Part shown: positions 2,416 through 26,142 of the stretch, one piece after another
Numbering within the stretch: position 1 is the first letter of the stretch
How the letters are laid out: each line of letters begins with the position of its first letter
Source of the DNA: a virus
Taxonomy: Duplodnaviria; Heunggongvirae; Uroviricota; Caudoviricetes
Direction: 5' to 3' (one strand)
Length of the DNA: 29,375 nucleotides
Virus record (IMG/VR): IMGVR_UViG_2563366852_000005
The notes under the pieces: model-generated
What the model was told of the DNA's origin: nothing
The model's input: the letters and a program-made list of their open reading frames with translations, nothing else
Database searches by the model: none
Translations under genes and position numbers: made by a program

Positions 2416-4863
2416 TTAACCGTCATGCATCATGCTGGCACGGGCGCGCGCACGTTTGTCCCGCTCGTATTTTTCGAGCGCATCCTGTAACTGGCGGTCG
2501 AGCTGTGTCCCCGGCGCAGTACCACCCGTCAGGCTGATGTGATATTCGTTTTTACTCTGGTCTACATAAGAGCGGCCAGCCGGTGCCGTGACCGGCTGAT
2601 AAGCCTGATAACCTGCATAAGAGCTGGTCGCCGGAATATAACCACCGCTGCCATACGTGGCGGCTTGAGTTCTGGCGGCGGTCTGGTCAAGTGTGTCTGA
2701 CTCTTTGTTGATGACACCGAGTTTTTCCAGTACCCAGTCAATACCACTGCGCAGTTTGTTGAACGCATTAAGCGGCAGCATCAGCGCGTCAGCCAGTGCC
2801 TGCCCGAACATGACGCCCGTGTCACGGCAACGGTTCAGGGTGTCCTGGGTGGCTTTGACCGGGGCAATCAGGTTTTTAAACCACTGCCACGCGGCCTGTA
2901 ACTTTTCACCCAGCCAGTCAAACACCGGTTTAAGTGGCGTGAACAGTTCCCCCACCGGCGCAAATGCCGCTTTCAGCCCTTCAACCACACCGCCAAAAAA
3001 TGCGCTGACAGGCTCCCAGTATTTACGGATAAGTAACGCCCCGGCGACAATGGCGGCCACCACGGCCACTACCGGCCAGCTAATCGCCCCGATGGCCGTC
3101 ATAACGGCACTGCCAACCGTCGTGAAGATTGCCCCCATTGCGCCTGCTGCTGCGATAATGGCATTGATGCCGGTGATAACTGGCCAGGCTACGAGGCCAA
3201 TGGCACCGATGACACCAATCAGCGCCAGTGCACCACCGACAATGAGGCCGATGGTTGACGCCAGTGATTTGTTTTTCTGGATCCAGCCGTCGAGTTTTAA
3301 CACATACTTTGTGGCCGTCTGCGTGAGATTACGCAGTGCGCCTTCCTGCTGGTCAAACAGGTCAGTGCCAACAGCCTGATACGCTGACTGAAACGATTTA
3401 AAGTCGCCGCCGAGGTTATCCTGCATAACCTTAACCAGTTCTTCTGTTTTACCGTCAGATTCTTTAATCAACCTGGTCAGATTATCCAGCTTGCCGCTGG
3501 CTGCTGCTGTCATTAATACACTTGCTGATGAGCTGGCCTCTTCGCCGAATATTGTTTTCATGTATTCAGCGCGCTGCCCTGTTCCTAGTTTATTTTTTTC
3601 AAAACTCCGCTGAATTTCTTTCAGAATTGAAAAGACAGGTCGCGTATTACCTTTGCTGTCAGTTGTCTTTACGCCAAGCTCTTTAATAGCGTCATACGCT
3701 TTCCCGGTTGGTGCCTGCAAACGACTCAGTACTGCTCGACTTCCTGTGCCAGCCATAGACCCACTGATATTTGCATCGTGTAATGCACCTAACATTGCTG
3801 CTGTTTCTTCCAGGCTGACACCTGCATCTTTTGCCACTGGCCCGACATAGGTAAGTGAATCACTTAGTCCCTCGAATGTGGCTTGCGATTTATTCATCGT
3901 CATTGAAATAACATCAGCAATATGGGAAGCCTTATCGTCAGCAAGCCCGAATGCCGATTTTGTCCCAATAAGTAAAGTGGCGTTTTCCTCCATCGTTTTC
4001 TTGTTTGCCAGTGACATATTCAAAATGGCCGGTGTTTGTGCCAGGATGCCATTTTTATCCGCTCCTGATTTAGCCACGATGATTTGAGCTGCTGCTGCAT
4101 CATCCGCCGAGGCGGCGGTATTATCGCCGAGCTGGCGCGCCTGCTTGCGGAGCGCGGCCATTTCGGCAGAGTCTTTTGCCACTCCGAGCACGGCCTGTAA
4201 TTCTGAGTTTTTCTGCGCAAACTCATAACCGGGCATCAGCAGCTTAACACCAGCCATCGTTCCCGCCGCCGCAATCCCCACACCGGCAGCGCCCACTGAG
4301 GCCATATTTCCGGCCAGTTCCTTTCCGGCCTGATAACGCTGTTTTACTGCATTAAGTTTTGCCTGTTGCGCACTGACACGCGCCAGCGCGTCACGCTGAC
4401 GGTTAAGCTGTGCGGTGGTTTCACTGATACGGTTTTTCAGTCCCTGCTCATCATGTGCAAGATTGCGGGTATTAATTCCCACAGCGGCCAGTTCCCGCTG
4501 CTGGCGTTTAACGGAATCCGTCAGGCGGTTATATTTCGCCTGTAAGTCCTCCGCCGCACGCTTTGCGGATTCCAGCACTTTCGCCTGAGCACGGGTCGGA
4601 CGTTCAGTGTTTTTAAACTGTGTGGCAAGTGCTTCGGCTTCCTGCCGTGCCTTTTCAAGTGCATGACCAGTCACGGCAAGCTGTGCGCTGGTCTTGCGAA
4701 ATCCCTCAATACGGGATGCGTGACCGTTCAGCTCGCGCAGTGATTTTTGTGTTTCCCGGATATCCCCCGACAGCGACTTGCTCGCTGTGCGGATGGATTT
4801 AAACGGGCGGGATGCCTGGTCAACAGCCCTGAGCAATACCTGTAATTTTACATTGTTACTCAT
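2416..4863 (-). CDS. T: Tail tape measure protein (P2 gpT)
   Basis: 815 aa, coiled-coil N-terminal half, Gly/Ala-rich hydrophobic central segment, position after E/E'. Confidence 0.92.
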   Translation of the reverse strand: MSNNVKLQVLLRAVDQASRPFKSIRTASKSLSGDIRETQKSLRELNGHASRIEGFRKTSAQLAVTGHALEKARQEAEALATQFKNTERPTRAQAKVLESAKRAAEDLQAKYNRLTDSVKRQQRELAAVGINTRNLAHDEQGLKNRISETTAQLNRQRDALARVSAQQAKLNAVKQRYQAGKELAGNMASVGAAGVGIAAAGTMAGVKLLMPGYEFAQKNSELQAVLGVAKDSAEMAALRKQARQLGDNTAASADDAAAAQIIVAKSGADKNGILAQTPAILNMSLANKKTMEENATLLIGTKSAFGLADDKASHIADVISMTMNKSQATFEGLSDSLTYVGPVAKDAGVSLEETAAMLGALHDANISGSMAGTGSRAVLSRLQAPTGKAYDAIKELGVKTTDSKGNTRPVFSILKEIQRSFEKNKLGTGQRAEYMKTIFGEEASSSASVLMTAAASGKLDNLTRLIKESDGKTEELVKVMQDNLGGDFKSFQSAYQAVGTDLFDQQEGALRNLTQTATKYVLKLDGWIQKNKSLASTIGLIVGGALALIGVIGAIGLVAWPVITGINAIIAAAGAMGAIFTTVGSAVMTAIGAISWPVVAVVAAIVAGALLIRKYWEPVSAFFGGVVEGLKAAFAPVGELFTPLKPVFDWLGEKLQAAWQWFKNLIAPVKATQDTLNRCRDTGVMFGQALADALMLPLNAFNKLRSGIDWVLEKLGVINKESDTLDQTAARTQAATYGSGGYIPATSSYAGYQAYQPVTAPAGRSYVDQSKNEYHISLTGGTAPGTQLDRQLQDALEKYERDKRARARASMMHDG

Positions 4864-5283
4864 TCGTGTTTCCGCTTCGCCGGAGCGCCTTTTCGCGCCA
4901 TGTGATGAGTTCGGTCAGGCTCATGGGATACAGTTCTGATGGCGGCCAGTGAAATATCACTGCCACATCCGCCATCAGGTCATCGACCGAGAGATTTTTC
5001 GGAAACGTTACTGCACCGAGTTCGGCGACAAAAAACCGACCACCTTACCGGCCAGGGCCACAAGGTCAGGCAGTTCCAGCGCGGCGACTTCCTGCTCGGT
5101 CAGCATCGGTGCCGTCATGCGCGGCAGCACTTTAATCAGTGCATCGACTTCGGAGTTTGCGACCGCAGCCAGACTGACACCGCGCAGCGTCCCGGCATTG
5201 GGTTTCATCAGCGTGACCTGTTCGATAACCTGCTCACCACGCTTGACCGGATTGTCCAGGGTAATCACATTTTCTTTGTTCAT
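4856..5283 (-). CDS. E': Tail assembly chaperone E+E' made by programmed -1 ribosomal frameshift at TTTTTTG (minus-strand site = plus coords 5029..5035); extension ends ...WREKALRRSGNTNE, stop overlapping the T start
   Basis: Manual translation of the -1 frame from the slippery heptamer gives an open extension to a TAA at 4856..4858, overlapping the T ATG (ATGAGTAA); matches the known P2 E/E' arrangement. Confidence 0.8.
5008..5283 (-). CDS. E: Tail assembly chaperone E (P2 gpE)
   Basis: 91 aa MNKENVITLDNPVKRGEQV... ends ...GKVVGFLSPNSVQ; slippery GGTTTTTTG near its 3' end. Confidence 0.92.
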   Translation of the reverse strand: MNKENVITLDNPVKRGEQVIEQVTLMKPNAGTLRGVSLAAVANSEVDALIKVLPRMTAPMLTEQEVAALELPDLVALAGKVVGFLSPNSVQ

Positions 5284-19080: not shown

Positions 19081-19253
19081 TGTCAGGAGTCCTGAATAGT
19101 GATTAGAGGAGTCACATGTCGACATCAGTTTCCCGACGATGCGCATCCTCCGCCATCAGTCCCGGATGGCTTATCACTGACACAACAGCACCTTAGCGAA
19201 TCGCGGGGCGCGACTCAGTAGCCTTGCCGTGTATTCATCACGGCGAGGTATTC
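19081..19253. promoter_or_regulatory. Divergent late promoter region between O and P; contains palindrome ATGTCGACAT (19116..19125) and dyad GTGA-N9-TCAC (19099..19115)
   Basis: Position between divergent late operons; inverted repeats read directly; exact Ogr-box assignment not possible by eye. Confidence 0.45.
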
Positions 19254-21026
19254 ATGACCATCACCACAGACACCACTCTTTTACACGACCCGCGTCGTCA
19301 GGCGGCGCTGCTGTACTGGCAGGGATTTTCCGTGCCGCAGATTGCCGCCATGTTGCAGATGAAACGCCCGACGGTGCAGAGCTGGAAACAGCGCGACGGC
19401 TGGGACAGCGTTGCCCCCATCAGCCGTGTCGAAATGAGTCTGGAAGCGCGACTGACCCAGCTCATTATCAAACCGCAGAAAACCGGCGGTGACTTCAAGG
19501 AAATTGACCTGCTGGGACGCCAGATTGAACGACTGGCGCGGGTCAACCGCTACAGTCAGACCGGCAACGAGGCAGACCTTAATCCGAACGTCGCTAACCG
19601 CAACAAAGGCGGGCGTCGCAAACCGAAAAAGAATTTTTTCAGTGACGAGGCCATCGAAAAGCTGGAGCAGATTTTCTTTGAGCAGTCTTTCGACTATCAG
19701 TTGCACTGGTATCGCGCCGGGCTTGAGCACCGCATCCGCGATATCCTGAAATCCCGCCAGATTGGCGCAACGTTTTATTTTTCCCGCGAGGCGCTGCTGC
19801 GCGCCCTGAAAACCGGCCATAACCAGATTTTTCTGTCGGCCAGTAAAACGCAGGCGTATGTGTTCCGCGAATACATCATCGCCTTTGCCCGTCTGGTTGA
19901 CGTTGACCTGACCGGTGACCCGATTGTCCTGGGCAATAACGGCGCAAAACTGATTTTTCTCGGCACCAACTCCAACACCGCGCAGAGCCATAACGGCGAC
20001 CTGTACGTCGACGAGATTTTCTGGATCCCGAATTTTCAGGTACTGCGTAAGGTGGCATCAGGTATGGCCTCACAGAGCCACCTGCGCTCGACCTATTTCT
20101 CCACCCCGTCCACGCTGGCGCACGACGCCTACCCGTTCTGGTCGGGTGAACTGTTCAACCGGGGACGCGCCAGCGCCGCCGAACGCGTGGAAATCGACGT
20201 CAGTCATAACGCCCTTGCCGGAGGTCTTCTCTGTGCGGACGGCCAGTGGCGGCAGATTGTCACCATTGAGGACGCCCTGAAAGGTGGCTGCACGCTGTTC
20301 GACATTGAGCAGCTTAAACGCGAAAACAGCGCCGACGATTTTAAAAACCTGTTCATGTGTGAATTTGTTGACGACAAGGCATCGGTGTTCCCGTTCGAGG
20401 AGCTGCAACGCTGCATGGTCGACACGCTGGAAGAATGGGAAGACTATGCACCCTTTGCCGCCAATCCGTTCGGCTCCCGCCCGGTATGGATTGGTTACGA
20501 CCCGTCACACCGTGGCGACAGCGCCGGATGCGTGGTGCTGGCACCGCCGGTGGTGGCCGGTGGCAAATTCAGAATACTTGAGCGTCACCAGTGGAAAGGC
20601 ATGGACTTTGCCACCCAGGCTGAATCCATCCGCAAACTCACCGAAAAATACAACGTCGAATACATCGGAATTGATGCCACCGGCCTCGGTGTCGGCGTGT
20701 TCCAGCTCGTGCGCTCGTTCTATCCCGCCGCGCGCGATATCCGCTACACACCGGAAATGAAAACCGCAATGGTGCTCAAGGCAAAAGACGTTATCCGCCG
20801 TGGCTGTCTGGAATATGACGTCAGCGCCACCGACATCACCAGCTCGTTTATGGCTATCCGAAAGACCATGACCAGCAGCGGACGCAGCGCCACCTATGAG
20901 GCCAGTCGCAGCGAGGAAGCCAGCCACGCCGACCTCGCCTGGGCGACCATGCACGCCCTGTTAAATGAGCCACTCACCGCCGGTATCAGCACCCCGCTGA
21001 CATCCACCATTCTGGAGTTTTACTGA
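19254..21026 (+). CDS. P: Terminase large (ATPase) subunit P (590 aa)
   Basis: MTITTDTTLLHDPRRQAALLYWQGFSVPQIAAMLQ...; ORF-track start at 19224 is a TTG upstream extension. Confidence 0.93.
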   Translation: MTITTDTTLLHDPRRQAALLYWQGFSVPQIAAMLQMKRPTVQSWKQRDGWDSVAPISRVEMSLEARLTQLIIKPQKTGGDFKEIDLLGRQIERLARVNRYSQTGNEADLNPNVANRNKGGRRKPKKNFFSDEAIEKLEQIFFEQSFDYQLHWYRAGLEHRIRDILKSRQIGATFYFSREALLRALKTGHNQIFLSASKTQAYVFREYIIAFARLVDVDLTGDPIVLGNNGAKLIFLGTNSNTAQSHNGDLYVDEIFWIPNFQVLRKVASGMASQSHLRSTYFSTPSTLAHDAYPFWSGELFNRGRASAAERVEIDVSHNALAGGLLCADGQWRQIVTIEDALKGGCTLFDIEQLKRENSADDFKNLFMCEFVDDKASVFPFEELQRCMVDTLEEWEDYAPFAANPFGSRPVWIGYDPSHRGDSAGCVVLAPPVVAGGKFRILERHQWKGMDFATQAESIRKLTEKYNVEYIGIDATGLGVGVFQLVRSFYPAARDIRYTPEMKTAMVLKAKDVIRRGCLEYDVSATDITSSFMAIRKTMTSSGRSATYEASRSEEASHADLAWATMHALLNEPLTAGISTPLTSTILEFY

Positions 21027-22060
21027 TGAGCAAGAAAAAAGGGAAAACACCTCGACCTGCGGCAAAAACAATCACCGCCAGCGCCCCGAAAATGGAAGCA
21101 TTCACCTTTGGCGAGCCGGTGCCGGTACTCGACCGCCGTGACATTCTGGATTACGTCGAATGTATCAGTAACGGCAGATGGTATGAGCCGCCGGTCAGCT
21201 TTACCGGTCTGGCAAAAAGCCTGCGTGCTGCCGTGCATCACAGCTCACCGATTTACGTCAAACGTAATATTCTGGCCTCGACATTTATCCCGCATCCGTG
21301 GCTTTCCCAGCAGGATTTCAGCCGCTTTGTGCTGGATTTTCTGGTCTTCGGTAATGCGTTTCTGGAAAAGCGATACAGCACCACCGGTAAGGTCATCAGA
21401 CTGGAAACCTCACCGGCAAAATATACCCGCCGTGGCGTGGAGGAGGATGTTTACTGGTGGGTGCCGTCCTTCAACGAACCGACACCTTTCGCGCCCGGCT
21501 CCGTGTTTCACCTGCTGGAGCCGGATATTAATCAGGAGCTGTACGGCCTGCCGGAATATCTCAGCGCCCTTAACTCTGCCTGGCTGAATGAGTCGGCCAC
21601 ACTGTTCCGCCGCAAGTATTACGAAAACGGCGCACATGCCGGATATATCATGTATATCACCGACGCATTGCAGGATCGCGATTACATTGACTCACTTCGC
21701 GAAAACATGGCCAAGTCGAAAGGACGCAATAACTTTAATAATCTGTTTCTCTATGCCCCACAGGGAAAGCCAGACGGCATCAAAATTATCCCGCTCAGTG
21801 AAGTGGCGACAAAGGACGATTTTTTTAATATCAAAAAATCCAGCGCCGCTGACCTACTGGACGCGCACCGCATCCCCTTTCAGTTGATGGGTGGCAAGCC
21901 GGAGAACGTCGGGTCGCTGGGTGATATTGAGAAAGTGGCAAAGGTCTTTGTCCGCAATGAGCTTATCCCGTTACAGGACAGGATCCGAGAGATAAACGGC
22001 TGGCTCGGTCAGGAGGTCATCCGCTTTAAAAACTACTCACTGGACACTGACAACGGCTGA
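21026..22060 (+). CDS. Q: Portal protein Q (344 aa)
   Basis: MSKKKGKTPRPAAKT...MEAFTFGEPVPVLDRRDILDYVECISNGRWYEPP...; TGATG overlap with P. Confidence 0.94.
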   Translation: MSKKKGKTPRPAAKTITASAPKMEAFTFGEPVPVLDRRDILDYVECISNGRWYEPPVSFTGLAKSLRAAVHHSSPIYVKRNILASTFIPHPWLSQQDFSRFVLDFLVFGNAFLEKRYSTTGKVIRLETSPAKYTRRGVEEDVYWWVPSFNEPTPFAPGSVFHLLEPDINQELYGLPEYLSALNSAWLNESATLFRRKYYENGAHAGYIMYITDALQDRDYIDSLRENMAKSKGRNNFNNLFLYAPQGKPDGIKIIPLSEVATKDDFFNIKKSSAADLLDAHRIPFQLMGGKPENVGSLGDIEKVAKVFVRNELIPLQDRIREINGWLGQEVIRFKNYSLDTDNG

Positions 22061-22065
22061 ACATC

Positions 22066-22087
22066 GCCGCCTGCGGGCGGCTTTTTT
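22066..22087 (+). terminator. Intrinsic terminator after Q (GCCGCC-tgcg-GGCGGC then TTTTTT)
   Basis: Perfect 6-bp GC stem, 4-nt loop and six T immediately after the Q stop. Confidence 0.85.
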
Positions 22088-22229
22088 ACACCCCGTCATC
22101 ACGCCCTCACACGCTCACCACAGCACAAAACAGCCCGCAGACACAGCAACGCCCCAGCGCACAATCTAAACGCCATCACGACGCGCTCAGACACTGAAAA
22201 AATAAAATCAGCACCACCGCCAGCGCGCA

Positions 22230-22248
22230 GTGCTTTCCCCGCCTCGCC
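22230..22248. other. cos: cos site: 19-nt cohesive-end sequence GTGCTTTCCCCGCCTCGCC (reverse complement of the P2 cos GGCGAGGCGGGGAAAGCAC)
   Basis: Exact match to the P2 cohesive-end sequence as recalled from memory; located between Q and the old-side cargo as in P2. Confidence 0.75.
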
Positions 22249-22376
22249 TGCCCGCTTTATGGGTCGATTTTAATGCAAGTGCACGAACACACTGGAGACG
22301 CACCAGTACTGGCGGTGGTCACGTAGATCCGCCCCTTAAAAGCCATGCAGAATAATGCAACTATTGCGGGCGTCGG

Positions 22377-22796
22377 CTAATCATCTTCTAAAGGTGGAAT
22401 TTTGATGCCACTAATTAGCAGTACTTTCCGGTATGCCTCAAAAATAATGTTGTGTGTTTTTTGTAAATCATCGAGCATTTTTTGCCGTCCTGCTGGGGTA
22501 TCTTTGGCGAAATTATGAGCGCGAAAAAAATCATGTGCCAAGTAGTTTCGAGCTGATAGAGCCAGTTCTACATGTTGTAGCGTTTCATCATCTGCCACCC
22601 CTTTTTTACGCAATAAATTGCTTAGTCTGCCTAATGTTAACTTATCAAATTTTAAGAATTTTTCTTTTAATGTTGGAATGTCTTCGCCTTGCTTCATTTC
22701 ATGTTCGATAAGGACATTAATCAGTTCAACTTCCAACAATTGTGCAGCTTCTGAGGTGTAACCGAACTTCCAAAAGACTTCATCAAGCGTTGCCAT
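22377..22796 (-). CDS. Hypothetical small alpha-helical protein with an HEPN-type R-N-x3-H motif (RNYLAH); candidate RNase toxin or abortive-infection effector in the tin/old cargo slot
   Basis: 139 aa from ATG at 22796 (ORF-track start 22805 is GTG); GAGTGG Shine-Dalgarno-like element upstream; about 35% GC versus about 52% for the phage backbone; motif read from translation. Confidence 0.6.
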   Translation of the reverse strand: MATLDEVFWKFGYTSEAAQLLEVELINVLIEHEMKQGEDIPTLKEKFLKFDKLTLGRLSNLLRKKGVADDETLQHVELALSARNYLAHDFFRAHNFAKDTPAGRQKMLDDLQKTHNIIFEAYRKVLLISGIKIPPLEDD

Positions 22797-22933
22797 GTGT
22801 TCCACTCAAGATAAATGCAGGTTATGAAAAAGAAGAATGATGATGGAAATTCCAGATGAAGTCTAACGCCTCGCTCCGCTCGTTGTTCAACCCCGCCAGC
22901 CCTGAAAACAAGTTTCACGACTGGCGGCGTTCT
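22797..22933 (-). promoter_or_regulatory. Putative own promoter/leader region for the AT-rich HEPN-like gene
   Basis: 137-nt non-coding gap with a GC-rich to AT-rich transition upstream of the ORF; no clear consensus -35/-10 assignable by eye. Confidence 0.3.
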
Positions 22934-23140
22934 CTATCGTCTGCGTGGTGGTGGCGTAACTCTTGATTGACCGATATGGTTAAACCGCCCGTAATTATCC
23001 CGGACTATTTCGGCACACACGACCAGCTCATCGGGCGTCAGATTTTCGTTGACCATAATCCGCTGTAAACGCTGAACAATAGCCATCAGCTTGATATTTT
23101 TAGTTTTATGGTGCGGTATCTCGCCTGGTATTCTGTGCAT
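22934..23140 (-). CDS. Small hypothetical protein (68 aa), translationally coupled to the upstream ASCH-like gene (TAATG overlap)
   Basis: ATG at 23138..23140 overlaps the TAA of the upstream gene; helical-looking sequence MHRIPGEIPHHKTKNIKLMAIVQRLQRIMVNENLTPDELVV... Confidence 0.4.
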   Translation of the reverse strand: MHRIPGEIPHHKTKNIKLMAIVQRLQRIMVNENLTPDELVVCAEIVRDNYGRFNHIGQSRVTPPPRRR

Positions 23141-23592
23141 TATCCAAGCCACCCGTTTTGCTGTGCACGCTCCATCTGTTCATCTGAATAGTTCCATGCT
23201 CCATCCGTGGCAACCATTGCCCCGCCAGACATCCCCGTCTCTGGTTCATACATAACAGCAAGGCCGAGCTGATGCATAATTTCATGATTAATTCTGAATA
23301 CCAGACCACGCTCACTAAGTTCTTTCCAGTTCACAATCTCATATGCGCCTGTATTAAGCCGCTCAATACTTAGCAAGACATAATCTTCCAGCCAGTCTGA
23401 CAGGTCAGTAACATCTGTTATCCGGGCTTCAACCTTTCGCCCCGTATACACACCCTGCACCCATTCATGCAAAATCAACGTGTCCCCGCGCTCATAATTA
23501 CGGTCATTTTTCCGAAACTCTGCACGTTTATGTCCTTCCAGCACAAGGTCGAAATATTTTGCGTGCAGCTTTACCTCGTGAATTTTTGCCAT
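23140..23592 (-). CDS. ASCH/PUA-like (DUF3850-like) domain protein with a C-terminal HEIMH (HExxH) motif, translationally coupled to A
   Basis: 150 aa from ATG at 23590..23592 overlapping the A stop (TAATG); N-terminal pattern KIHEVKLHAKYFDLVLEGHKRAEFRKNDRNYERGDTLILHEW...YTGR resembles ASCH-like phage proteins; C-terminal INHEIMHQLG. Confidence 0.6.
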   Translation of the reverse strand: MAKIHEVKLHAKYFDLVLEGHKRAEFRKNDRNYERGDTLILHEWVQGVYTGRKVEARITDVTDLSDWLEDYVLLSIERLNTGAYEIVNWKELSERGLVFRINHEIMHQLGLAVMYEPETGMSGGAMVATDGAWNYSDEQMERAQQNGWLG

Positions 23593-25877
23593 TATGTCCA
23601 CTCCATTACTGTTGAGAATCCCGGCCACTCATCAGCGACCGGATACGTGAATTTTTTCCCGTCGTAATTTACGGTTGCCCCACGCGCCAGCGCCTCAAGC
23701 TCCCATCGCTGAGGCCTGATACCGTTCTGAGCAAGGTCAACACGGATACGGGTAATTTGCATTCTTTCCGACCGGGTCAGTCTGGCCGATGGTGCAATTT
23801 CATGCGGTTTTAACGGGCTTCCGTTTCTTTGCTGACGATTTGGTGTTCTCATGTCGTGTTTTAATGCGCCCCTGAGCGCCCTCACGACCTCCTGGTCATT
23901 CCATTCGATAACACCGTCATCAACCAGATTAAGCACTGCTGCGGCGTGTTCAGAAGGTGTGGGAGCCGGTAACGAAGCATCACCGCCGGTGAACTTTCCA
24001 CAGTTATTGACAGGACTCCGAGGCGCGGCGATGCCGCTTTTTAAAGTCAAAGGCTCAACGACCGGAACTTTCGGCACAATGCGCCAGTCCGTCGTTCTGG
24101 TGATATGAATATGTCGCGCGCCGAGATGCGGCGCGTAAATGCCGACCACTCTCTCGACTTCTTCTTCGTACTCGTTAACGTCTTCCGACGGGCTACGGGC
24201 AACCCTGACAGTCTGACAATCGCGCGGGACATTTGCCCCACCCTGCGCGCTGATATACAACGCAAAATCACCACTGTCTGCGGCGGCGCGTGCAGCCTCG
24301 ACGCGCTCGTCAAACTCATCAGCAATGCTGACGCCGCGAGGCAATTTGCGTAGTTCACGGTAAGCCCCCATTGTCGGCAGACCAACCGTTTTAAATTGCG
24401 GAATGCGCCACGTTGACGCCCATGCGGTAACAGCCGCAGCAGTGTCTTTCAGCGGCCTGCCGGTATCGTTATCGAGCTGACCATCCAGTGCATAGCCGTC
24501 GATGTTTTTTGAGATGTATTTCGCGATATACCCCGCAGCACCGCCCCGGTTAAGGTGTTTTGCCTGAAAACGGTTTCGCGCGGCTCCTCTTTCGTCGCCA
24601 TCCTCTTTGAGCGCGTAGCGACGCATGATTTCGATAATCTGGTTACGCTGGCGTGGATTACAAAAAAGCATCATATGCCAGTGCGGCGTTCCGTCGTGGT
24701 GTGGTTCAACAACACGCAAACCGTAGGCCTGTAAATCATTATCCTTGAATGCCGTGCGCATCAGGCTCCAGATACGGCAGAGATAACGCTGCGCATCCTT
24801 TGGATTAAATGCCTCATCGTTCCAGCCGTGATTTAGCTGGACGGTTTTACTTTCGCCTTTTCTGACCTGACGTGTCGGGTGATACTTTGACGGCGCGGTA
24901 AGCGTGATAAACATCCCCACATCACCCTCTGCGGCGGCGTAACGCTCAATACCGGCGATGGTGTTCATCAGCTCCATCCGGCGAATTTCTGGATTTGAAA
25001 TACTGCCCATCACCTTACTGATAAGGTCGATGCGCTCGCCGGTTTCCTTGTTTTCAAGGTCACACGATTTAAGAAATTCCAGATTTGCCTGGCGGCGTGC
25101 ACGTACATCACGAATGGCATGTTTACTGGCATAAGGAGAACGGTCTTTATTGACCTCCCCGACAGCAATCAGTAACGCCTCATGCCAGCGCATGCGCTGG
25201 CCTTTGAGCTGATGAGTCCACCACTCATCGTTAAACAGACGGGCAATGGCAGAATACGCCTGCCTCGTGGTCATCTGTCCTTTACGGTATTTTTTCCAGT
25301 AGAGCGGGGAAATATTGAAAGCACGTGCAGCGCCAGCAACATGACCATACAGGTGAGCCTGCGCCTCATCCGTAAACAGCGATTCTTTTTCGCCATGCGC
25401 ATCCACCCAGGCATCGCTGAGTTCCTCATACATCATGAAAAGCTGCGATGAGATACGGGCGGCAAACTTTTTCAGCTCTTTGTCATTCATTCCAGGCAGG
25501 CGCGCATAGTGGTCACGCTCTGCCAGAAACAGCAACGACGCGTCGGTGTTCATTTCATGGCGCTGATTCACACGCTCAATGCGCGGCCATAAACGACGCT
25601 GAAAAGTGGATGTGAGGAAATAAAACCCGTGCACCGGGCTTTTATTGCGCCGGATGTAGTCATAGCGTGAAGTAAACAGCGAGCGCAAAAAGTAAGGCAG
25701 GCGGTTAATCGTGGATAAAACACCTTGCACCTGACGCATCTCGTCACGTGTAAGGGGTCTTTCGCGCCCGACAGCCTCGCGTGGCGCGTTCCATGCATAA
25801 GCACCGGTAAACGCCTTACCGGTGCCTGCGGCAAATGCTGACGGAGGGACAAAACGCCCGGAGGCTTTAACGGCCAT
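23592..25877 (-). CDS. A: Replication initiation protein A (rolling-circle nickase, 761 aa)
   Basis: MAVKASGRFVPPSAFAAGTGK...; start chosen to match P2 gpA length; ORF-track start at 25919 is an upstream extension. Confidence 0.93.
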   Translation of the reverse strand: MAVKASGRFVPPSAFAAGTGKAFTGAYAWNAPREAVGRERPLTRDEMRQVQGVLSTINRLPYFLRSLFTSRYDYIRRNKSPVHGFYFLTSTFQRRLWPRIERVNQRHEMNTDASLLFLAERDHYARLPGMNDKELKKFAARISSQLFMMYEELSDAWVDAHGEKESLFTDEAQAHLYGHVAGAARAFNISPLYWKKYRKGQMTTRQAYSAIARLFNDEWWTHQLKGQRMRWHEALLIAVGEVNKDRSPYASKHAIRDVRARRQANLEFLKSCDLENKETGERIDLISKVMGSISNPEIRRMELMNTIAGIERYAAAEGDVGMFITLTAPSKYHPTRQVRKGESKTVQLNHGWNDEAFNPKDAQRYLCRIWSLMRTAFKDNDLQAYGLRVVEPHHDGTPHWHMMLFCNPRQRNQIIEIMRRYALKEDGDERGAARNRFQAKHLNRGGAAGYIAKYISKNIDGYALDGQLDNDTGRPLKDTAAAVTAWASTWRIPQFKTVGLPTMGAYRELRKLPRGVSIADEFDERVEAARAAADSGDFALYISAQGGANVPRDCQTVRVARSPSEDVNEYEEEVERVVGIYAPHLGARHIHITRTTDWRIVPKVPVVEPLTLKSGIAAPRSPVNNCGKFTGGDASLPAPTPSEHAAAVLNLVDDGVIEWNDQEVVRALRGALKHDMRTPNRQQRNGSPLKPHEIAPSARLTRSERMQITRIRVDLAQNGIRPQRWELEALARGATVNYDGKKFTYPVADEWPGFSTVMEWT

Positions 25878-26142
25878 ATGAGCCAAAAGCCTCTGAGCAA
25901 CGCTTGCTGAGTTGCTCAACCTGCGCGTTTAAATCAGCAAAAGACTTTGCGCTTCCGGTCAGAATATCGTGATGCATCAGGCCGGAAACGAGCTGGCTTA
26001 ATTTCGGGTAATAACCAACCACCGCCAGCCATTCCTGACCGGCGTTTTTACCGCTTTCCGCTCTCTTTTTCTCGTGGAGAATAAACTGAAAGCTGTCACT
26101 GGTAACGACATAACGTTCGCCAATTTCAATACGAATACTCAT
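25867..26142 (-). CDS. P2 orf83-like hypothetical early protein
   Basis: 91 aa immediately upstream of A, overlapping its start; conserved early-operon position. Confidence 0.75.
   Translation of the reverse strand: MSIRIEIGERYVVTSDSFQFILHEKKRAESGKNAGQEWLAVVGYYPKLSQLVSGLMHHDILTGSAKSFADLNAQVEQLSKRCSEAFGSYGR

Follow-up and report, generated by a model that had tools for sequence, protein, structure and literature searches.

In P2-like phages, the interval between the replication gene gpA and the portal gene gpQ has been described as the cos-proximal defence hotspot (PMC9122126). The small gene considered here belongs to the family formed by orf92 of Wphi (gp92), orf37 of PSP3 (gp37) and PHROG 11386, and it shares with them its size and its site before the cos-proximal variable region. 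Between orf92 or orf37 and this gene there is no difference of substance. The encoded protein is 76-96% identical to most of its relatives in phage records and 73% identical to that of Wphi, a sequence affected by errors.

For the function of the family, the described systems of interest are those in which small proteins act on host proteases. T4 PinA and T7 Gp4.5 act against Lon. In ClpX, the N-domain docks the tail of the adaptor SspB (LRVVK) as well as substrates, among them lambda O and MuA, and the anti-adaptors IraP, IraM and IraD are small helical proteins encoded on a mobile element. No factor directed at ClpX is, to our knowledge, described for P2-like phages. For ClpCP, SPO1 Gp53 provides an example of a phage protein that acts on the protease (PMC6873191).

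The window, i.e., the whole stretch of 29,375 nucleotides that was analysed, represents a P2-like (Peduoviridae) prophage in reverse orientation, with the gene order gpA-ASCH-ORF-E-cargo-cos-portal, in which E denotes a structured element (Table 1). The start of gpA was set at the ATG giving 761 aa, following the annotation of related phages; the ORF listing extends this frame to a TTG at 25919.

Table 1. Coordinates of the small gene and of the features around it in the window.
Feature	Position	Strand	Remarks
Terminase gene gpP	19224-21026	+	
Portal gene gpQ	21026-22060	+	cos region next
Hotspot cargo gene, 142 aa, phrog_12893	22377..22805	-	inside variable segment ~22316-22862
Structured element E	22858..22938	-	71-nt core 22863-22933, 3' end GGCGTTAG
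Small gene, orf92/gp37 family	22934..23140	-	68 aa, phrog_11386 E 1.4e-37
TAATG overlap, ASCH-like TAA / small-gene ATG	23138..23142	-	retained in 55/89 related loci
Shine-Dalgarno-like GGGTGG	23149..23154	-	within 3' end of ASCH gene, 8 nt 5' of ATG
ASCH-like gene, P2 orf91 family, phrog_1812, 150 aa	23140..23592	-	DUF3850/ASCH N-terminal + DUF7415 C-terminal
TAATG overlap, gpA stop / ASCH start	23590..23594	-	
Replication gene A, rolling-circle nickase, 761 aa	23592..25877	-	head of chain gpA-ASCH-small gene

The small gene and its reading frame

The ORF spans 207 nt, i.e., 68 codons and a TAG stop, and its ATG (23140..23138) shares one base with the TAA of the ASCH-like gene (23142..23140). 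In the ORF listing the frame starts earlier, from a GTG at 23152 (72 aa); all homologues, even those whose ribosome-binding site is independent, start with MH(R/K/V) at the ATG. A full-length profile match (residues 1-67 against profile positions 1-68 of 69), together with the position after the replication/SOS genes and before the variable region, as in Wphi, PSP3 and PHB48, assigns the gene to the orf92 family. Homologues fall into 144 clusters at 90% identity, from E. coli, Salmonella, Citrobacter, Enterobacter and Buttiauxella. The ORF is present in 372 of 5426 complete E. coli genomes, and the protein of the window is 100% identical to one protein cluster (P0001) found on 187 contigs.

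The first-pass annotation had taken the stop/start overlap as a usual sign of real translational coupling, had proposed conservation and synonymous substitution as a check, and had named frame-disrupting indels in homologues as the observation that would speak against it. The match to phrog_11386, the wide occurrence and the frame-specific purifying selection show that the ORF is a real protein-coding gene. Selection was analysed on 85 fetched copies comprising 65 distinct DNA sequences. The median pairwise dN/dS is 0.13 and falls to 0.08 in the helical core; against Salmonella-type copies dS is about 1.7-1.9 (saturated), with dN of about 0.17-0.19. Among the 65 distinct sequences, the ORF frame has a pooled pN/pS of 0.137 and zero stop codons. 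Four of the other five frames have pN/pS of at least 1.0, and the remaining one, an antisense frame, reaches 0.275 but holds 151 stop codons. No frame-disrupting indel was found, all CDS lengths (85/85) being multiples of three. Homologues measure 67-78 aa, with length differences that are likewise multiples of three and confined to the C-terminal linker, and the helical core and the terminal PPPRR(R/P) are kept throughout this variation.

For an ORF so short and outside any Pfam family, it could be supposed that the frame is open by chance, or that it is spacer DNA conserved for another reason. This supposition is effectively refuted by the purifying selection specific to the frame (low dN at saturated dS), by the absence of stops from the 65 sequences, by indels that come only in threes, and by a start codon conserved under two different ribosome-binding arrangements. 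The ORF is thus a genuine, strongly conserved and already catalogued gene: the Wphi annotation has it as orf92, that of PSP3 as gp37, and PGAP lists it as a 'hypothetical protein', which contradicts the earlier remark that an ORF track would not single it out. The earlier observation is correct, but adds little as written.

Wphi was considered as a frame-disrupted homologue and rejected. Relative to the window, the locus carries eight single-base insertions over 750 nt, each beside an identical base, and the three that fall in the orf92 homologue together restore the frame, a pattern that fits sequencing error better than decay. In the Wphi record (L001, NC_005056/AY135739; locus at about 3100-3860), the insertions split orf91 and orf92, and the annotated gp91 and gp92 are probably truncated artefacts of the deposited record.

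A separate observation concerns the E. coli chromosome records NZ_AP027679, NZ_CP104598, NZ_CP196099, NZ_CP116976 and NZ_AP045796, in which the match to window positions 22860-23145 (ORF and E) lies at 2733-3015. Base 1 of these records is therefore the ATG of the prophage gpA, and the assemblies were apparently rotated to the phage replication gene instead of dnaA.

The junction with the ASCH-like gene

Both structural features of a coupled gene pair are present at the junction, namely the stop/start overlap and a Shine-Dalgarno (SD) sequence inside the upstream gene. The duplex energy of GGGTGG with the anti-SD is -5.9 kcal/mol; that of the independent GAGGG of Salmonella-type loci is -6.1 kcal/mol. 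Overlap and internal SD are compatible with translational coupling in the lineage that carries TAATG. By itself the pentamer is statistically unremarkable, with 50 copies over both strands of the window; its conservation, in 55 of 89 loci, exceeds chance. A one-base overlap also joins gpA to the ASCH-like gene (TAATG) and gpP to gpQ (TGATG), so that it is the normal operon junction of this phage and denotes no special pairing. Since it recurs at each junction of the chain, orf92 would most likely be transcribed with the early replication operon, as the last gene of the chain, and ribosomes terminating on the ASCH-like gene would most likely re-initiate at orf92. Two sigma-70-like matches (23167-23139 and 23069-23042) were rejected as promoters; they score 9/12, the first overlaps the start codon, and both are probably due to chance.

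Across the 89 loci, the junction takes the TAATG form in 55, is replaced by a gene with its own SD in 29, and is of another kind in 5. The 29 loci are of the Salmonella/Eganvirus type (including PSP3, SEN1 and PHB48) and have GAGGG 6-8 nt upstream of the start and no overlap. In PSP3 the gene, orf37, lies downstream of tumA/tumB, and in PHB48 it lies downstream of DinI and an orf97-like gene. In P2-like prophages of Serratia it follows a gene of 231 aa, and in those of Citrobacter a Toprim primase. Because homologues with an independent SD exist, coupling is not required for the family, and the coupling to the ASCH-like gene reads as a lineage-specific packing feature. In three loci (L010, L053 and L055) the ORF is kept though the ASCH stop has shifted.

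The first-pass annotation had further suggested that the small protein could serve as a partner of the ASCH-like protein, whether as adaptor, antitoxin or inhibitor. This part of its reading is not supported, the family having no adjacent ASCH gene in about a third of the loci examined. A dedicated partner of the ASCH/DUF3850 protein would fit the overlap in 55 of 89 loci and the constant adjacency of the DUF3850+DUF7415 gene and the ORF in E. coli-type phages. We nevertheless regard it as improbable, since neither adjacency across lineages nor similarity to defence or toxin-antitoxin components was found. No ASCH gene adjoins the ORF in the PSP3/SEN1-type, P2-EC67-type, Serratia and Citrobacter lineages; the DUF3850 homologue of Salmonella-type phages is either undetected or located some 3 kb off, upstream of gpA; and in P2 orf91 (DUF3850) is directly followed by tin, the small gene being absent. 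In PADLOC searches, the ASCH-like gene gave a chance-level match only, and the small ORF matched no defence or toxin-antitoxin model. Judged by gene order, the ASCH-like gene appears to be a neighbour and not an obligate partner. The small gene, with its own SD and different upstream neighbours in other lineages, behaves as an autonomous module.

The ASCH-like gene itself varies among these phages. Its similarity to P2 orf91 (L092, 817-1146) stops near window position 23372, so that P2 shares only the N-terminal part of the two-domain (DUF3850 + DUF7415) gene. In Salmonella-type phages, the DUF3850 and DUF7415 homologues are found upstream of gpA instead. Literature searches on orf91/orf92 and DUF3850 returned nothing relevant.

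The structured element at the hotspot edge

More than 80 loci resemble the window up to a point 71 nt past the stop of the small gene (22863), where the similarity breaks off abruptly; it resumes at about 22315, near cos, which delimits a variable cargo segment of about 22316-22862. The 71 nt correspond to element E, with the consensus AAACGCCGCCAGtgcTGAAACttGcTTTCAgtgCTGGCGGGGTTGAACAACGAGCnnnGCGAGGCGTTAG, which begins directly after the TAG of the small gene and ends with GGCGTTAG, where the cargo begins. Its hairpin comprises 15 pairs with 97% of cells paired, and 8 pairs show compensatory changes. As controls for this covariation, none of 500 shuffles and no slid control came near the observed value, and the region folds better than its own shuffles (z = -3.4). 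No Rfam family matches window positions 22000-23700. A canonical intrinsic terminator was considered and rejected, as the hairpin lacks a U-run after it.

E has a wider distribution than the small gene, occurring in 68 phage records, including that of 186, where it lies (L091, 3338-3418) between orf97 and the annotated terminator t95b. According to a covariance model, E is single-copy in most phages. In Eganvirus-type loci, two copies bracket the gene in the arrangement E - 120 nt - ORF - E; those of PSP3 (L089) are at 3802-3881 and 4206-4286. Loci L012, L014 and L015 carry an extra copy after a cargo gene of 257 aa (the copies of L012 are at 4203-4283 and 5170-5250). In view of these copies on both sides of the ORF or of a cargo gene, an integron-like cassette boundary was also considered for E and set aside as only remotely conceivable: 44 of 45 further E-bearing contigs contain one copy, and none has a multi-copy array. 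E thus follows the stops of several unrelated genes and marks the proximal edge of the hotspot. Candidate roles are an RNA 3'-end or processing hairpin, a recombination anchor and a protein-binding site. A 2026 study of the hotspot noted that the recombination processes there are still to be elucidated (PMC13586616); E, a sharply bounded element at the point where P2-family genomes turn hypervariable, offers a starting point for this question.

Several further observations concern the surroundings of E. The spacer of 120 nt that separates the small gene from the upstream copy (PSP3, L089 3882-4000; the same in L061, L078, L049 and L006) contains, by eye, a dyad of the form TGT-N12-ACA (or ACG) whose centre lies some 55 nt upstream of the start site that a TATAGT -10 box implies; the spacer has no -35 box. 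This layout is one that we take to be the architecture of the Ogr/B-activated late promoters of P2 and 186. A similar dyad, TGG-N12-ACA, lies at 19167-19184 in the intergenic region upstream of gpP. On the other side of E, the cargo gene has no Pfam or PADLOC match and is, from its position, a candidate defence gene; phrog_12893 also occurs in locus L034, with 94% identity. A terminator-like hairpin with a T-run at 22211-22226 (-), between the cargo gene and cos, matches terminator t95b of phage 186 in position, which indicates that the cargo is inserted between E and the operon terminator.

Fusions to a ClpX zinc finger and possible functions

The product of the small gene has a mass of 8.0 kDa and a pI of 10.8. 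AlphaFold2 (AF2), run on a 35-sequence alignment, places two helices at residues 10-31 and 36-59 between flexible ends, with pLDDT above 90 for 30 residues. The protein is accordingly predicted to be a basic two-helix hairpin followed by the conserved C-terminal tail PPPRRR. The N-terminus carries a His and the tail has the form PPPRR(R/P); the invariant positions include L18, M19, A20, L25, M29, E32, N33, L34, P36, E38, V40, C42, V46 and R47. A Foldseek search of the model against PDB and BFVD gave no significant match, the small ORF matches no Pfam family, its PHROG function label is uninformative, and PADLOC assigned it to none of its families (0).

A profile search of 1.84 billion representative proteins yielded just 31 relatives, so the family is narrow. 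In 6 of the 31, the hairpin domain is followed by the zinc finger of ClpX (PF06689, zf-C4_ClpX), with scores of 42.8-68.1 bits at a cut-off of 27 bits. The fused domain matches structures of the E. coli ClpX zinc-binding domain (2DS5 and 1OVX; E 6.6e-16), and an AF2 model of a fusion protein contains both domains. Further fusions were found in Serratia, Cedecea, Yokenella and Citrobacter, and the motif KLxGIxxRLQxxMxxENITPxELVxCA is common to the family and the fusions. The fusion genes hold the equivalent position in P2-like prophages of several genera; for example, the locus reads gpA - 231 aa - fusion - HicAB cargo - portal in Serratia and Toprim primase - fusion - 83 aa - Ogr - portal in Citrobacter. 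Another fusion, in Serratia fonticola (CP023956, L099 5001-5321), is a chromosomal orphan, flanked by genes for a Usp-domain protein and a LysR regulator, and phage genes are absent from its surroundings. The window protein itself does not match PF06689; it has a single Cys (the invariant Cys42), and the four-cysteine zinc ribbon is absent. Among the 219 loci searched, no separate ClpX-like zinc-finger gene was found near short-form genes. Literature searches gave no link of P2-like phages or the orf92 family to ClpX, and those on phage ClpX zinc fingers nothing relevant.

The fusions suggest that the family acts on ClpX/ClpXP, and for the short form we infer this link solely from the domain fusion. 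The best explanation overall, to which we assign a probability of about 0.35, is that orf92 is a Peduoviridae accessory gene that ends the gpA-ASCH-orf92 chain and whose product would act on host ClpX/ClpXP. A small early protein modulating ClpX/ClpXP is the best guess that the sequences allow, albeit unproven. The family would act through protein-protein interaction with ClpX/ClpXP, and it might block or redirect the delivery of N-domain-dependent substrates early after induction or infection. In the short form found in phages of E. coli and Salmonella, the place of the fused zinc finger would be taken by the basic tail; this tail, PPPRRR, is unlike the ClpX-binding tail of SspB.

The same domain architecture could be read differently, in that the zinc-binding domain of the fusions might merely dimerise, unrelated to ClpX, and the small protein might be a protein-binding accessory with another target, serving for instance in anti-defence, as an accessory to a replication protein or in host take-over. 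Early phage proteins that are small and helical typically inhibit host proteins, and the gene always ends the replication/SOS operon, beside the defence-cargo hotspot; its absence from P2 and 186 implies that it is dispensable for growth, as would suit such an accessory. This possibility is in our view only a little less likely than action on ClpX; against it, no characterised family is matched, and the sole fusion partner of the hairpin domain is the ClpX zinc finger, which points to ClpX itself. The basic character of the protein invites yet another proposal, namely that hairpin and Arg-rich tail bind E, as RNA or DNA, and thereby govern the transcript that runs into the cargo hotspot, through its read-through, processing or stability. 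Besides the pI and the tail, this proposal can draw on the position of E 2-8 nt after the stop in every short-form locus, on the covariation of its hairpin, and on the Serratia fusion loci, in which both tail and E are missing. We hold it to be unlikely, for phage 186 and most other E-bearing contigs have E but not the gene, and E also follows unrelated genes (orf97, tumB and the 257-aa cargo gene), so that the co-occurrence may reflect only a shared backbone; moreover, the cargo genes often lie on the opposite strand, e.g., tin/old in P2.

Action on ClpX/ClpXP, the preferred reading, can be extended into a bolder proposal in which the hairpin domain is a hitherto unrecognised phage module targeting the ClpX N-domain and E is, separately, a recombination or insertion signature of the P2 defence hotspot. 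We consider this proposal unlikely. If true, P2-like phages would have two ways of interrupting the ClpXP proteolysis that depends on adaptors and the N-domain, the phages of Serratia and Citrobacter using a decoy zinc-binding domain and those of E. coli and Salmonella a basic tail. A phage or host protein, such as the adjacent replication initiator, Tum or cargo antitoxins, might thereby be stabilised early. The fusions to the ClpX zinc finger and the structured element at the hotspot edge are the most informative of the new points, and we put both forward as hypotheses. As the only domain fusion of the family is to the ClpX zinc-binding domain, a concrete and cheap hypothesis is available for a gene found in about 7% of complete E. 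coli genomes.

Compared with known systems, the closest relation to ClpX N-domain proteins (PF06689) is that of the distant orthologues, whose hairpin domain is joined to a zinc finger of the ClpX type. The window protein, small, helical and encoded on a mobile element like the Ira anti-adaptors, lacks a zinc finger and does not resemble SspB, RssB or the Ira proteins in sequence. The Salmonella/Eganvirus-type gene resembles phage 'morons', accessory genes that form autonomous units among the backbone genes, in having its own SD, a promoter-like spacer and two flanking copies of E; the gene of the window differs from them in that it lacks its own promoter and is tied into the early operon by the TAATG overlap. 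T4 PinA, T7 Gp4.5 and SPO1 Gp53 are related to the window protein neither in sequence nor in fold, but the proposed logic is the same, that of a small early phage protein that would re-tune a host protease.
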